Notes: generated by a model from the letters alone, not told the origin. A stretch of DNA of 64,000 nt from Candidatus Obscuribacterales bacterium (GCA_965228855.1 CBDDIJ010000003.1:2752001-2816000); one strand, 5' to 3'. Counted from the first letter of the stretch, positions 44,325-50,892 are shown. A program made the numbers and translations.

Positions 44325-45776
44325 ATGGAAAAGCTGATCTACGAGAAATCCAGCCCTGGACGCCGTGGAGTGAAGGTTCCAACATCCAATGTTCCGGAGA
44401 AAAAACTCTCGGACATGATTCCGAGTCAGTACGTGCGTAAAGAAGCGGCAGCGTTGCCGGAAGTCACAGAGCTGGACACCATGCGCCACTTCGTGAGACT
44501 GTCACATTTGAACCATTCAATCGATACAGGGTTCTATCCGCTCGGTTCTTGCACGATGAAATACAACCCCAAAGTCAATGACGCGATGGCGGCACTTGAG
44601 GGATTTAGAGAACTCCATCCGCACCAACCGGTCGATCAAATTCAAGGTGCCCTGGAACTGCTGTATAACCTGGAACAGATGATCGCGGAGATTGTCGGTT
44701 TGCCACACGTCACCTTCCAGCCAGCCGCTGGGGCTCACGGTGAGCTTACCGGTTTGTTGTTGATCCGCGCTTACTTCGAAGCAAAAGGTCAAACGAATAG
44801 AAACATCGTCATCGTGCCCGACACCGCCCACGGTACCAACCCTGCGACCGCAGCGCTCGCCGGCTTCGAAGTTGTCGAGATCGGATCGAACGAAAAAGGT
44901 TTGGTCGACATTGAAGCTCTGAAAGGCGCTTTGAACGAAAACGTAGCGGCCATCATGTTGACGAACCCGAACACCCTCGGTTTGTTCGAAGAAGAAATCA
45001 TGACGGTTCAAAAGCTCATGCACGAAGCCGGCGGTATGTTGTACTACGACGGCGCGAACTTGAACGCGATCATGGGTCTGGTCAGACCGGGCGACATGGG
45101 CTTCGACGTCTGCCACCTCAATCTGCACAAGTCGTTCTCCACTCCTCACGGTGGTGGCGGTCCTGGTGGTTGCGCCGTCGCTGCCCGCAAAGAACTTCTG
45201 CCATTCTTCCCGAAACCGGTTGTTGTCAAAACTAATGACGGGTATGAATTTGATTGGAATCGCGAGCAATCAATCGGAAAAATCAAAGGGTTCTTCGGCA
45301 ACTTCGGAATTCTGGTCAGAGCCTATACCTATATTCTTGCAAACGGAAGAGAAGGTTTAGAGCAGATATCACGAGATGCGATTCTCAACGCCAACTACCT
45401 GAAAGAACAGCTCAAGCACATCTACGATTTACCGCACACGCAATCGTGCATGCACGAGTTCGTCATATCCGGTTCGAGACAAAAGGCTCGTGGAGTTTCA
45501 ACTTCGCACATCGCCAAACGCCTTCTGGATTACGGTGTTCACGCTCCGACAGTTTACTTCCCGCTGGTAGTGCCGGAAGCAATGATGATTGAGCCGACAG
45601 AAACAGAATCGAAGGACACCCTCGACTCGTTCGTCGAAATAATGACGAGCATCGACAAAGAAACCATAGAGACACCGGATGTGGTGCTTAATGCGCCGCA
45701 CACGACGCCGGTGGCGAAATTGGACGAAGCACTTGCTGCTCGCAAACCCAATCTAAGATGGACGCCGGGCACTTAA
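44325..45776 (+). CDS. gcvPB: Glycine dehydrogenase (decarboxylating) subunit 2
   Basis: [47 protein letters not shown]. Confidence 0.96.
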
Positions 45777-45785
45777 GTGCACTTA

Positions 45786-45864
45786 GGAACCACATTTCGA
45801 AGCAGCATTCGATAACCGCAAGATTCCGAAGAGCATTGGAAACCACATTCCGAAGCACCATTCG
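45786..45864. repeat. Degenerate ~26-bp direct repeats (about 3 units)
   Basis: ggaaccacatttcgaagcagcattcg, gcaagattccgaagagcatt and ggaaaccacattccgaagcaccattcg. Confidence 0.7.
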
Positions 45865-45980: not shown

Positions 45981-48086
45981 TTGATCGCAGGCCCGTCGAT
46001 GTCGTTTCTCTTAGGCTTCCAGAATAAATCCGCTGATGCGGAGCCATACTCCCTCACCGCAGATGCCCTGCGGCAACATTTGCTCATCACCGGCGGACCA
46101 AGCACCGGTAAAACAAACACATGCTGGCAACTTCTCACGGAGCTGAGCAAAGAGCAAGTTCCTTTTCTCATGCTGGAAACGTCCGGCAAAAACTATCGGA
46201 AACTGACGACCGAGCAGGCTTCAATTCGCACGTTTTCGATATGCGACGACGCGAAAGACTCGCTCCGCTTCAATCCGCTGCGATGCGAATCGCATGTGCG
46301 CATTCTCAATCATATACAAACCATTGTGTCCCTCACGACAGCATCTTTCAATCTTTCGATAACGTCCTCAAAGGTGCTTGAGAAGGCGCTATATGCCGTC
46401 TACAACAATCATGGCTGGAATCTGTTCAGAAACAGAAACAACCGCGTCAAACCGAACGAGAGCGGTGAATCCAGCGGCTATCCGCCGGAAGCCTATCCCA
46501 CCCTTCTGGAACTCCTGGAGTTTATTGAAAGCGTTCCGTTCGCGAATGTGTTGGCAAGCAACCCGCCCCAGGAATTAGTGCGCGCGATTGATTCACTCGT
46601 ATCGGCCAGTAGTGGTGCCGTATTCAATACCAAGTTAGGACTGCCTCACGATTTCTACGAACACAGTCAGCTGCTGGTCGAGTGTGATGGTATCTCGGAT
46701 ATTCGCAACAAGTGTTTCCTCGTCGGCATGCTGTTGTTGCAAGTCAACGAACATTATATGAAACAAGTCGATGATCGAGAAAAGCGTTGCATCGTGATCG
46801 ACGATGCGATTCAACTGACCTATTTGATGGGTCTGCCCGGTCGACGCGTCGGCGACGATCAGAAGGAGGACAGCTGGATTCCACTGTCGACTCTTTTGGG
46901 AAATCTGCGCCGTCTTTCCGTGCCACTTATTCTTTCAATGCAGGCATCAAGCAAGCTCAGTCAAGATTTGATCGCACTGTTCGGTACAAAGATTTTTCAT
47001 CGGATCGACGTTCAGCAAGCCAAACAAATTTCAAACGGTTTACCAGAAGACCTTGATGAAAAGGAGCTCTACAAGTGTCCTGTCGGTGCCGCCTGGGTCG
47101 TAGGACAAGATCAACCTGCAAGTGTTTTTTTGAAAGTTCCAAAACATGACATTCCCGAGCGAGATACTTCGGTCGCGAACATCGGTTCGATGAAAAACAC
47201 TTTGAACTGCCGATACGCAGGCTGCTCCTCATTTCCCGGTGCCTGCGAGGATGACACCTTCGTCAAAGCGCGCGAGATTGCAGATAGTCAGGCGTTTCGC
47301 ACTATATATGTAAACTACTTCCTGAGCTGCCAGAAAGATCTCACTCAGCTGGTTCATTTCCGCGGAAGGCTGGTTGGCGAGTTGCAATCGCAGATAGGCA
47401 AAAAATTTCCCGACATCGTCGAGTTGAGCTGGTGCACAATTTGTCAGGCGACCGAATGGTATTTCGATAAGCTCGCTCGCGAACATGGTTGGTCCTATGC
47501 GGATTTGCATGAACAGAAGGAACGTTGGTTCAGTATGTTGCGCCCGGCGTTTCTACCGGATTGGCCGACGAGACGAATTAACATCGACGATCTTCGCCAG
47601 TGGCGTGATGAGTTTTGGAAATTGAAAGAACGCGACCAGGGTCCGCTTCCGCTCTGCGGAGAGTGTGACGCGAAGTGCAGATATGGATCGGATGTCGAAC
47701 ACATACTTCTAGATTCTCGCAACGAAAACGATTTTTTCAAAGCATTGTCCGGAGAGACGGAACCGCTCTCTAAGGCAGCTGCGTGGTTCTGCTGGCTGTT
47801 TTCCGAACGAGTGATGGGTGAACCTGACTTCGACCTCGCTTATTGCTTTGCAGCGCACTTCCTGGGGCGCGCGAACCTGAGTGTCGATGCGCAACTCGTA
47901 TTCGCGCACAAGACACGTCAGCAACTCGAAGATGCTAAACAAAAGTTCGAAGCCGGCGAACCAATTTTCCCGACGCCTGAAACCAAAACAGAAGAAACTG
48001 AAAAAGAAGCGAGAAGACGTCGCGCCAGAGAAAGAAGAAAAAATCGTCAGGATGGTGACGAGCCTCCTCTCAAGCCAGTTCCCTGA
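45981..48086 (+). CDS. HerA/FtsK-like (DUF87) P-loop ATPase with Cys-rich C-terminal domain
   Basis: HLLITGGPSTGKT Walker A, LRFNPL, Walker-B-like IVIDDAIQL, Q.SSKL....TKIFHRI. Start 45981 TTG or 45999 ATG. Confidence 0.8.
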   Translation: MIAGPSMSFLLGFQNKSADAEPYSLTADALRQHLLITGGPSTGKTNTCWQLLTELSKEQVPFLMLETSGKNYRKLTTEQASIRTFSICDDAKDSLRFNPLRCESHVRILNHIQTIVSLTTASFNLSITSSKVLEKALYAVYNNHGWNLFRNRNNRVKPNESGESSGYPPEAYPTLLELLEFIESVPFANVLASNPPQELVRAIDSLVSASSGAVFNTKLGLPHDFYEHSQLLVECDGISDIRNKCFLVGMLLLQVNEHYMKQVDDREKRCIVIDDAIQLTYLMGLPGRRVGDDQKEDSWIPLSTLLGNLRRLSVPLILSMQASSKLSQDLIALFGTKIFHRIDVQQAKQISNGLPEDLDEKELYKCPVGAAWVVGQDQPASVFLKVPKHDIPERDTSVANIGSMKNTLNCRYAGCSSFPGACEDDTFVKAREIADSQAFRTIYVNYFLSCQKDLTQLVHFRGRLVGELQSQIGKKFPDIVELSWCTICQATEWYFDKLAREHGWSYADLHEQKERWFSMLRPAFLPDWPTRRINIDDLRQWRDEFWKLKERDQGPLPLCGECDAKCRYGSDVEHILLDSRNENDFFKALSGETEPLSKAAAWFCWLFSERVMGEPDFDLAYCFAAHFLGRANLSVDAQLVFAHKTRQQLEDAKQKFEAGEPIFPTPETKTEETEKEARRRRARERRKNRQDGDEPPLKPVP

Positions 48087-48253
48087 TTCTTATCTTTTCC
48101 CGATACGATACATATCTCGATCGAGAGCACCACATATATCGCTTGTGTGAATGCGTTTAAGTTCACTCTCGTTTATTGACTTTCGTAACGAACTGGAGTT
48201 AGATCTGTCGTGTGAGGAATGCGCGAACTGGGGTAGTGCAGAAGTCACAAGTT

Positions 48254-48463
48254 TTGAAGGAACGGGGAGAACCCATCTGCTCTGGACCGCTTACGCGGTG
48301 TAGGTTGATGTTTCGTCAACCAGTTTGGTGTGGTGTCATTTCCAGCGACAAAAATTGCTGCTGGGGTTCTGAAAGAAATTCTCGAAGAACCGTTATTAAG
48401 GGACTGAGCGTTAATCCGGCGCATTGATTCCTAGCGGGGCATGGGTCTCCTCCGTTTCTTCAA
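48254..48463 (+). ncRNA. Putative retron msr-msd non-coding RNA
   Basis: Terminal inverted repeat 48254-48276 (ttgaaggaacggggagaacccat) pairs with 48441-48463 (atgggtctcctccgtttcttcaa), enclosing four short hairpins. It ends 44 nt before a retron-type RT. Confidence 0.75.
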
Positions 48464-48507
48464 TTACTGACTGAACAGTTTTCGCAGAAAACAAAGAGTT
48501 TGGTGGC

Positions 48508-49395
48508 ATGTACGATATCAATACCCTCGATCAACTCGCCGGCGAATTAGCCGTGTCCGAATTCGAGCTATTGCGGTTCGTATATCGCAGCGGTGAATTT
48601 TACAGAAGATTCAAACGCAGAAAGAGCAACGGTGACACCCGCGTCATCCACGCTCCCGATGAGCCTTTGAAGAGTCTTCACCGGGCAATTATCAAACGCT
48701 TTCTCGCTCCAATTCCATTGCCTGATGCCTGCACAGGTTTTCGTCCAGGCAAGTCGATACTAAACAACACGATTCCACATTGTGGAAGACGTTTTGTCTT
48801 CAATGTCGACATAGAAGATTTCTTTGCATCGATATCTTCTGAACGAGTTCTGGGCTTGTATCTCAGGCTTGGGTTCGCTTTTCCGGTCGCCTGCGTGTTG
48901 ACGGAACTAACTACTTTTATGGGCTCGCTGCCACAAGGCGCGCCATCCTCTCCTTATCTCGCCAATCTGATTGCGCACAGTCTCGACATGGAGATGACCG
49001 AGTACTGCAAAAACAGAGGCTGGACGTACACTCGTTATTGCGATGATATCACCATATCTGGTGACACCACTTTCACGCTCGGCGATATGAAAATGGTTAC
49101 CGAGATTCTGGACTCGGAAGGCTTCCAGTTGAACATGAAGAAAACCCGCTTCCTGCGCCGAAACTCAGCGCAAATGGTATCAGGTCTGGTAGTGAATAAA
49201 CGACCGAACTTGCCTCGCGAAAAGCGACGCAATATTCGTGCGATGTTTCACCAAGCCAGCATAAGTCCGGAGAAATACAAAGAGCGCACGCAAGAGCTGG
49301 AAAACCACCTTTCGATGCTTTCAATGTTGAATCCACAAGATGCCGAGGTTATCAAATATCGCGCGATTTTAAACAAAGTCTGCGCCCAAGCATAA
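48508..49395 (+). CDS. Retron-type reverse transcriptase
   Basis: KSNG..R.IHAP...LK, GFRPGKSI.NNTIPH (region X NAxxH-like), DIEDFFASI, LPQGAPSSPYLAN, YTRYCDDITISG, KKTR, QMVSGLVVN (region Y VTG-like). 295 aa with no fused domain. Confidence 0.93.
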   Translation: MYDINTLDQLAGELAVSEFELLRFVYRSGEFYRRFKRRKSNGDTRVIHAPDEPLKSLHRAIIKRFLAPIPLPDACTGFRPGKSILNNTIPHCGRRFVFNVDIEDFFASISSERVLGLYLRLGFAFPVACVLTELTTFMGSLPQGAPSSPYLANLIAHSLDMEMTEYCKNRGWTYTRYCDDITISGDTTFTLGDMKMVTEILDSEGFQLNMKKTRFLRRNSAQMVSGLVVNKRPNLPREKRRNIRAMFHQASISPEKYKERTQELENHLSMLSMLNPQDAEVIKYRAILNKVCAQA

Positions 49396-49441
49396 AGTTT
49401 AGCGACCGTCTGAGCCTAACTCAGCGAACCGAACACAACCG

Positions 49442-49486
49442 CAGAGAGCCGCGTGATTTCGTCGATCACGCGGCTCTCTGTTTCTT
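49442..49486 (+). terminator. Strong intrinsic terminator after the RT
   Basis: Perfect 16-bp stem cagagagccgcgtgat / atcacgcggctctctg followed by tttctt. Confidence 0.88.
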
Positions 49487-49508: not shown

Positions 49509-49655
49509 CTCAAGCGAAGCCAAGCGACTGAAGCCAAGCCATTAGCTCGAGCGAAGTGAGCAATCATCTCAAGCGAAACCAAGCGAGCGAAGCCAAGCCA
49601 TCAGCTTGATCTACCCCGAACCAGATCTACCTAGAACCAGATCTACGCAGAACCA
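49509..49655. repeat. Intergenic direct repeats: 42 bp x2 and 16 bp x3
   Basis: 49509-49550 and 49568-49609 match at 37/42. gatctacNNNgaacca occurs at 49608, 49624 and 49640. Confidence 0.85.
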
Positions 49656-49656
49656 C

Positions 49657-50892
49657 TTAACGCATCAAATTGCTGTATTCCATTTGAAACTGAACGTATT
49701 GCTTCTTCTCGAGCAATCTAGCTATTTCGCGTCTAGTGCCTTTGATGGGAGCCAGACAAGACAGTGCCACGAAATTGATGAATGTCAGCGGTGTTAGAGC
49801 CATGATAAACTTCGTCACTTCATCGCCATGCATACCGTAGTAGCAAGCCATCGCAAGGTAAAAGCCAATCAGATTGCAGACCAGAAAGATGACGCAGTGC
49901 ATAACGAGGAAAAAGCGTTCGCGAATCAATGACGCATTGAGCGACTCCATCTCACTGAGCAATGCCGGTGGAACTGATCCTGCGGCGCCACCACTGATTT
50001 GAGCGAACGTAGGAGCGCCGCCGGTCGGAGGGAGTGGAACAGTGTTGCCTGCCGGATTCATGGACGGCGTTGGTGCCCAATCCATCTTGGTTCCGGAAAT
50101 CTGCGAAAGACGAAACGCTTCCAATTTTGCCAGGTCATCATACGAAACAGTATTCGGTATTGCGACCTGCTGAGGCAGAGGCTGCGAGAATGACTGTTGC
50201 GCGTATTGAGGATTTACGTGATTGTTCTGTTGAACAAAGCCAGAAGGGACCCCGTTCTGGCTTGGATAAACTTGTGGAAAATTGTTCGTAACTTGTTGTG
50301 CCTGGAAGTTACCGGTGTTTTGCGGCCCCTGGAAATTTCCTGCTGGTGCCTGATAGTTACCCGTCTGAACCTGAGAATTTCCTGACTGAGCCTGATAGTT
50401 CCCTGTCTGAGCCTGATAGTTACCCGTCTGCGCCTGATAGTTACCGGTTTGCGCCTGAAAATTCCCTGTTGATGCCTGGAAGTTACCTGTCTGCGCTTGA
50501 AATGCTCCCGCCTGAGCTTGAGGTTGACCTGCGTGCGTTTGGTAGTGATTGTTTTGCGACTGATGCATGCCTGGCTGAGGCTGAACGGCGTGGAATGAAT
50601 TGGTTACCGCCTGCTGCGCTTGCTGGTAGTTACCTGTCACCGTCTGTGGTGGCTGCACATAACCCTGACCGAATTGATGCGCGGACGCTCCTGGCACACC
50701 CGAACTCGGATGCGATGGGTATATGCCCATACGGCTAGCAGCTTGTGCGAAGGCTGACTCTAGAGGAATGGAATTAGTAATAGTTGGTTCGACTGTAGTT
50801 CCGCATTCACCGCAGAACTTGGCGCAGGGCTCCAATAAGTTGGAGCAATTCACGCAAGGCGTCTTTTGTTGGCGTGTCAACGAGCTGGTCAT
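49657..50892 (-). CDS. Zinc-ribbon / Q-N-rich repeat / two-TM membrane protein
   Basis: CVNC...AKFCGECG N-terminus, QAQTGN(Y/F) heptad repeats, two C-terminal TM helices. Confidence 0.8.
   Translation of the reverse strand: MTSSLTRQQKTPCVNCSNLLEPCAKFCGECGTTVEPTITNSIPLESAFAQAASRMGIYPSHPSSGVPGASAHQFGQGYVQPPQTVTGNYQQAQQAVTNSFHAVQPQPGMHQSQNNHYQTHAGQPQAQAGAFQAQTGNFQASTGNFQAQTGNYQAQTGNYQAQTGNYQAQSGNSQVQTGNYQAPAGNFQGPQNTGNFQAQQVTNNFPQVYPSQNGVPSGFVQQNNHVNPQYAQQSFSQPLPQQVAIPNTVSYDDLAKLEAFRLSQISGTKMDWAPTPSMNPAGNTVPLPPTGGAPTFAQISGGAAGSVPPALLSEMESLNASLIRERFFLVMHCVIFLVCNLIGFYLAMACYYGMHGDEVTKFIMALTPLTFINFVALSCLAPIKGTRREIARLLEKKQYVQFQMEYSNLMR
50300..50520 (-). repeat. 21-bp coding tandem repeat, about 9-10 copies (QAQTGNY/F)
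   Basis: cctgatagttacccgtctg-type units visible on the + strand. Confidence 0.88.

Follow-up and report, generated by a model that had tools for sequence, protein, structure and literature searches.

A retron lineage of Obscuribacterales with no recognisable effector gene, related to type II-A retrons

Two groups of described retrons come closest to the locus reported here. Type II-A retrons (Ec86/Eco1, II-A3) combine a non-coding RNA (ncRNA) plus a reverse transcriptase (RT) with an NDT-wHTH effector gene; stand-alone retrons are known in clade 2, which holds the orphan Ec107 branch, and in clade 11, and the consulted sections of the sources leave their function open (PMC7736814, PMC13712802). 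The present locus comes from a Candidatus Obscuribacterales bacterium (GCA_965228855.1 CBDDIJ010000003.1:2752001-2816000), a stretch of 64,000 nt that we call the window and to whose plus strand coordinates refer unless stated otherwise. Positions 45981-49486 hold an ATPase-like gene, a structured RNA and a stand-alone RT. Very probably the retron is effector-less and the ATPase is not its partner. Its working unit is likely to consist of a promoter-like site, the ncRNA and the RT, forming a domesticated derivative of type II-A retrons that has settled in the chromosome. At the level of sequence, the locus displays retron anatomy, a conserved promoter-like site, no effector gene, fixed chromosomal sites and purifying selection.

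The likeness to type II-A lies in the best structural match of the RT (RT-Ec86), its best PADLOC model (RT_II-A), a hairpin of 8 bp with a UUU loop, and nearest kin that bear NDT genes. Unlike type II-A retrons, the locus has no NDT-wHTH that we could find in cis or in trans, a promoter-like site of its own immediately ahead of the ncRNA, chromosomal sites that are fixed, and three short msd hairpins; lacking NDT, it is not itself a member of type II-A. With the Ec107 branch and clade 11 it shares the layout of a stand-alone intergenic ncRNA–RT cassette with no accessory gene and no mobile element nearby (PMC7736814, PMC13712802), and with Ec107 itself the YCDD core (PMC6868368); unlike these, it appears to have lost its effector independently and is inherited across genera. 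What is new is thus this effector-less lineage and not a class of retron, since orphan retrons are already known from Ec107. No description of the lineage was found in the openly accessible literature, which was covered in part and without supplements, and no linkage of orphan retrons to ku-ligD was found in the literature searched.

Anatomy of the retron

The locus runs from gcvPB (44325-45776) through the ATPase gene (45981-48086), a gap of 421 nt and the RT gene (48508-49395) to a hairpin and a convergent zinc-ribbon/membrane gene (49657-50892). A preliminary description of this DNA had placed the ATPase (701 aa) and the RT (295 aa) in the same orientation between gcvPB and a convergent membrane-protein gene, with no effector fused to the RT or encoded 3' of it at this locus, and had called the RT and the RNA a retron; arrangement and coordinates were recovered as described, and the retron call agrees with the RT motifs YCDD, NTIPH and VSG and with an adjacent ncRNA of retron anatomy. 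That description had overlooked the separate promoter-like site that lies between the ATPase and the ncRNA, as well as the changed catalytic motifs of the ATPase.

The RT (48508..49395, 295 aa) stands alone, with NTIPH in region X, the YCDD core and VSG in region Y; the N, H, DD and G of these motifs are invariant across 15 aligned RTs, many relatives having NAxxH and VTG. It matches PF00078 at 74.9 bits. PADLOC models assign it to the retron type, with RT_II-A on top at 250.9 bits by a small margin over III-A (243); the Ec107-like model scores 217 bits, lower than II-A (251), Ec107 itself lying outside our trees. The match to the NCBIfam retron St85 model stays below its cut-off (216 v 235), and the top PDB match is RT-Ec86 (E 5e-44). 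The enzyme is, judging from its substitutions, under strong purifying selection: the ratio of nonsynonymous to synonymous substitution rates (dN/dS) is 0.01-0.11 where computable, that is, not saturated. The RT distance also tracks that of gcvPB (Spearman 0.94, 55 pairs), a linked gene, over pairs that are non-independent.

That the gap holds a closed structured RNA, as claimed earlier, is borne out by folding and by covariation in orthologues. Its 421 nt fold better than 100 of 100 shuffles (z -3.31); Rfam gave no match for the gap. The predicted ncRNA (48256-48461) is closed by a covarying stem, a 5' arm, a2 (48256..48284), pairing with a 3' arm, a1 (48435..48461). Directly after a2 stands the predicted branching guanosine (48285), unpaired and opposite an unpaired G at 48434; opposing G residues belong to the published retron consensus (PMC7736814). 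The msr (48286..48321) would form two hairpins that recur in orthologues, stem-loop a (48286-48299) and stem-loop b (48303-48321), with an 8-bp stem and a UUU loop, the same shape as the recognition hairpin of Ec86, to which RT-Ec86 binds (PMC6868368). The msd template (48322..48434) would be copied into at most 113 nt of RT-DNA, folded into three short hairpins that recur in orthologues; the predicted DNA alone folds no better than shuffles (z -0.74). In an alignment of 10 orthologues 95.7% of cells pair, against about 50% in slid controls; two-sided changes occur at 10 of 45 pairs, and the covariation score was reached by none of 500 shuffles, in a test whose structure derives from the same alignment and whose 10 sequences are kin. 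The branching G keeps its place after the closing stem in both lineages of the element, that after gcvPB and that after ligD. A model of the ncRNA (R1) matches 33 of 104 family genomes; a loose pattern scan of metagenome contigs met the full ncRNA core in 3 of at least 120 loci. From this anatomy we infer that the ncRNA and the RT together would produce branched multicopy single-stranded DNA (msDNA).

Chromosomal sites and the search for an effector

A profile search over 104 family genomes (Obscuribacterales), many of them incomplete, recovered an RT orthologue of the gcvPB type in 20, with the frame intact at 20/20 loci. The gcvPB lineage forms one branch of the RT tree (support 99). Eighteen further loci of the effector-less clade have the RNA core and the promoter in common with it: 15 lie directly after ku-ligD, one after an inserted gene, and two elsewhere. 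An effector-less RT of this clade is found in 34 of the 104 genomes, excluding G109 and four genomes with only a distant RT of 390 aa. Close RTs were absent from plasmids (577 records, all below 60% identity, the best among the matches listed at 30-41%) and from viral contigs (best 39%). Vertical inheritance of this kind, with domestication suggested, is described for type XIII myxobacterial retrons in the consulted part of PMC7736814; those keep SWIM, WGR or ARM partner genes, unlike the present lineage, which has none.

Both sites are occupied in the window's genus. All eight genus genomes, the window's included, have an intact gcvPB copy; the ligD copy is intact in three, frameshifted in one (G005) and reduced to a promoter and RNA remnant in four. 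In the window's genome this remnant lies on contig C2 (L319:3400-3790), where the RT has been deleted, hairpin b has decayed and the closing stem still pairs; similar remnants occur in G007, G002 and G006.

Could the whole lineage then be a functionless II-A relic, persisting by inertia in an intergenic site? The patchy distribution and the visibly decaying ligD copy would suit that explanation. Against it, the dN/dS of the RT is close to the gcvPB value where synonymous distances are saturated, the gcvPB-type frames are all intact, and promoter geometry and RNA pairing are conserved; purifying selection has already largely refuted the idea, and we give it very little weight.

Where, then, is the effector? 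The nearest effector-bearing relatives, as placed by the RT sequences, are type II-A (NDT) retrons. In two loci belonging to the same RT radiation, an NDT_II-A gene stands directly 5' of the ncRNA (L083, E 3e-32; L074, E 9e-22), and the next outgroup in the RT tree consists of NDT-bearing loci from viral contigs. The two loci themselves (L083:4780-6879 and L074:4945-6921) are complete type II-A retrons, with NDT-wHTH, ncRNA and RT, and close kin of the effector-less clade, which suits them as positive controls. NDT was found in one of the 104 family genomes, G109, beside its own RT; in the window's genome a hidden Markov model (HMM) built from 16 NDT proteins found none. A weak tblastn match to NDT there (E 0.001) was rejected, as it falls inside an unrelated open reading frame (ORF) of 494 aa that the HMM does not recover. 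At the locus there was no match to PtuA/OLD models, to an HNH or TOPRIM nuclease or to an NADase partner, and none of the neighbouring genes is shared by the lineages. Type VI retrons feature a small toxin within the RNA (bioRxiv 2025.10.22.683967, as far as consulted), along with an HTH gene. This layout was not seen here: across 13 loci, no ORF of at least 20 aa is conserved in start and length in the ncRNA region, which argues against a hidden toxin of this kind. Having neither NDT nor a conserved small ORF, the unit counts as effector-less within the reach of these tests.

A toxic effector encoded elsewhere, and not recognisable as NDT, would leave the element a defence retron. The strong conservation of the RT and of the msd hairpins calls for a partner, and effectors in trans were left open for orphan retrons by Mestre 2020 (PMC7736814, in the sections consulted). 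We nevertheless hold such an effector to be unlikely: no NDT was found in trans, no conserved neighbour accompanies the retron, and the RT of the ligD copy is deleted or frameshifted in 5/8 genus genomes, though the gcvPB copy stays there.

The window's genome also encodes a second stand-alone retron-like RT (contig C2, L320:4459-5628; 389 aa, 39% identity). A short hairpin stands just 5' of it and recurs ahead of similar RTs in other family genomes; an effector beside it is not evident.

The upstream ATPase

ATPase genes are known beside retrons of types I-A and I-B (Ec78, Ec83, Eco8), where they belong to the ABC family and act with an HNH or TOPRIM nuclease (PMC7736814, PMC12819146, consulted sections). 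The gene at 45981..48086 resembles these in its position beside the retron and differs from them in its HerA/VirB4-like fold, its altered Walker B motif, the lack of a nuclease and a distribution that does not follow the RT. Its 701-aa product, which perhaps starts at the ATG at 45999, is paralogous to a family-wide protein of 1066 aa and N-truncated, lacking the first ~380 residues of that protein. Walker A is kept; Walker B reads DD in 12/12 short forms vs EE in 17/17 long forms, so that the catalytic Glu is replaced. The preliminary description had labelled the protein HerA/DUF87-like. The DUF87 part of that label does not hold for the protein itself, which misses DUF87 in Pfam, and does hold for its full-length paralogue; the HerA part is favoured by the predicted structure (pLDDT 74.5), which matches HerA, DndH-C, VirB4 and TrwB but not ABC ATPases. 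A PDB sequence search with the protein returned nothing. The predicted fold would thus be of the kind found in Sir2-HerA and DUF4297-HerA defence systems, with catalytic motifs altered here; unlike in those systems, no NADase or nuclease is adjacent, the neighbours of the gene being gcvPB and the retron.

This ATPase had been put forward as the only plausible in-cis effector, in an unusual retron architecture. Its co-occurrence with the RT does not favour that proposal: upstream of the 20 gcvPB-type RTs, the ATPase stands in eight genomes, all of the window's genus; gcvPB directly in 11, from four other genera; and one contig, ending 746 nt upstream, is unscorable. ATPase orthologues (74-100% identity) occur in the same 8/104 genomes only, and other matches, at 46% identity or less and mostly to the paralogue of 1060-1250 aa, bring the genomes with some match to 92/104. 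Among nine genomes without this RT, the zinc-ribbon gene follows gcvPB within 1.5 kb in 5/9, and the ATPase is there in 0/9. The empty site and the 8/20 distribution together indicate the order of events: an empty site, then the retron, then the ATPase. The ATPase is therefore likely to be an independent later insertion upstream of the retron, and the data favour the alternative that the earlier account had also offered, an orphan retron.

It is nonetheless conceivable that the truncated protein was newly co-opted as an effector in this one genus, giving a retron-HerA system. It is adjacent and co-oriented in 8/8 genus genomes, evolves under purifying selection (dN/dS 0.04-0.12) and has lineage-specific conserved motifs, and Ec78 provides a precedent for the co-option of an ATPase by a retron (PMC12819146, consulted part). 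Other evidence makes such a system improbable in our estimate. The retron is older than the ATPase at this site, as the 11 ATPase-free genomes indicate, and the ATPase has its own conserved -10-like element, separate from the ncRNA–RT promoter-like site. A gene of 250 aa, with 0.7-1.2 kb, intervenes between ATPase and ncRNA in 3/8 genus genomes, and, of five genomes lacking the ATPase, four show the same msd layout and the fifth a shorter one. The short forms all lack the catalytic Glu, a nuclease or NADase partner is missing, and truncated paralogues of other genera lie away from any RT in 3/3 loci inspected.

Those other genera have their own truncated, degenerate copies in unrelated contexts (L047:6937-8988, L048:7042-9159, L049:6521-8371), and truncation of this ATPase appears, from the sequences, to be recurrent. 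The parent gene (1066 aa) is highly conserved; upstream of it (region L318:2174-12026) is encoded a protein of 1503 aa that has a domain like type IV secretion system coupling proteins. A quick tree of the ATPases has long branches and was not used for ancestry.

Promoter, possible function and flanks

The ncRNA and the RT appear to have a dedicated promoter. A predicted sigma70-type site (48176..48205; -35 hexamer TTGACT at 48176, -10-like hexamer at 48200) is preceded by two ATATAY-type boxes 22 nt apart (48112..48139; positions -64 and -42 relative to the -35 hexamer), a predicted regulator site, and by a third conserved element (48150..48160, at -26 to -17). A generic promoter scan missed this promoter. 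The geometry of boxes, third element, TTGAC and -10-like hexamer is fixed in all 27 hairpin-bearing loci examined, among RTs 43-100% identical; in the dereplicated set TTGAC is invariant (17/17 loci) and ATAT stands at -42 in 16/17 promoters. Within the window's genome, the two retron loci alone show the complete pattern (scores 62 and 31; next 16).

Does the promoter hint at a function? The proximal box lies 64-68 nt ahead of the retron -10, and a matching box 62-68 nt before the -10 occurs in 15 of 24 recA promoters (28 examined, 4 unscorable) vs 3 of 247 TATAAT sites in the window's genome. A promoter box common to recA and the retron hints at a link to DNA-damage control, and we treat it as a lead. 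A genome-wide regulon for the box found no support beyond recA. The recA promoters themselves (L141, L143-L169) have in common a conserved -10 and, at -29, a T-rich element, with ATATAY boxes lying both upstream and downstream; the window's genome holds lexA and four WYL-domain genes.

Given these observations, we propose the following history and mechanism. An NDT-bearing II-A retron would have lost its effector and then settled behind ku-ligD; a copy would have come to lie between gcvPB and the zinc-ribbon gene, and one genus would later have gained a truncated copy of the resident ATPase 5' of the promoter. Transcription of ncRNA–RT may be turned on by an activator that acts on the upstream boxes and is possibly shared with recA. 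The RT would bind stem-loop b, prime on the 2'-OH of G48285 and copy the msd into a branched msDNA of ~100 nt with three hairpins. With no toxin to restrain, this msDNA might bind or titrate DNA-processing proteins of host repair or of phage, an idea that follows the precedent of overexpressed msDNA, which can titrate MutS; the orphan Ec107 is starvation-induced (both PMC6868368, consulted part). The host is likely to benefit in some way that differs from the usual phage defence by a toxin. Taken together, an effector-less retron with a bystander ATPase, for which DNA-damage stress is the leading candidate function, is an account we find reasonably probable; a DNA-damage role of the retron, judged by itself, is a tentative suggestion. 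The most specific version, in which a toxin-shedding defence retron was domesticated into the Obscuribacterales DNA-damage response, with an activator shared with recA and an msDNA serving as decoy, signal or patch with Ku-LigD or other repair proteins, we consider doubtful at present.

Several observations weigh against this account, besides the retention of the ATPase throughout the genus and the Ec78 precedent. Searches missed the element in about two thirds of the family genomes, and its ligD copy decays within this genus, so that it is dispensable; the deep nodes of the RT tree are not settled. At radA conservation of the box is lacking (2 of 19 scorable promoters, 30 examined), repair genes are not enriched among the 20 of 27 genome-wide box candidates that were scanned, and ku carries a different conserved upstream motif (L075-L087). 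Box and window of distances were, moreover, chosen after the recA of this genome had been seen.

What is the relevance of such a lineage? The classification paper asks whether orphan retrons use an effector in trans or serve a different function (PMC7736814, sections consulted), and the lineage offers a clean test case: its effector-bearing kin are known, its ancestral site is empty, it occupies two loci that are fixed, purifying selection on it is strong, and it has a promoter dedicated to it. Domestication for DNA damage, if true, would be the first case of a retron with a natural role in DNA repair outside defence, and a compact toxin-free RT–ncRNA pair may serve msDNA engineering. The ATPase adds a caution: a neighbour present in 8/8 genomes of a genus proved to be no component of the system once other genera were compared.

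Two further neighbours were considered as partners and set aside: the convergent zinc-ribbon gene, which adjoins gcvPB even without the retron, and a 634-aa membrane gene that stands 3' of the RT in 5/8 genomes of the genus but neither in the window nor outside the genus. The latter (L056:11176-13080) encodes a multi-pass protein without a Pfam match, presumably similar to amino-acid permeases, and has two paralogues elsewhere in the window's genome. A sequencing run (X20), in which a contig covers the ncRNA but the ATPase has none, is probably DNA, was equally patchy over ku-ligD and was not used as evidence. Past the RT, the perfect 16-bp hairpin noted earlier was found at 49442-49480, within a predicted bidirectional terminator (49442..49486, unstranded) that has T-rich tails on both strands. 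The GC content of the locus is similar to that of its flanks, and short degenerate direct repeats lie on both sides of the insert (45783-45864 and 49509-49655), comprising a 29-nt pair, a 42-nt pair and three tandem 16-nt copies.

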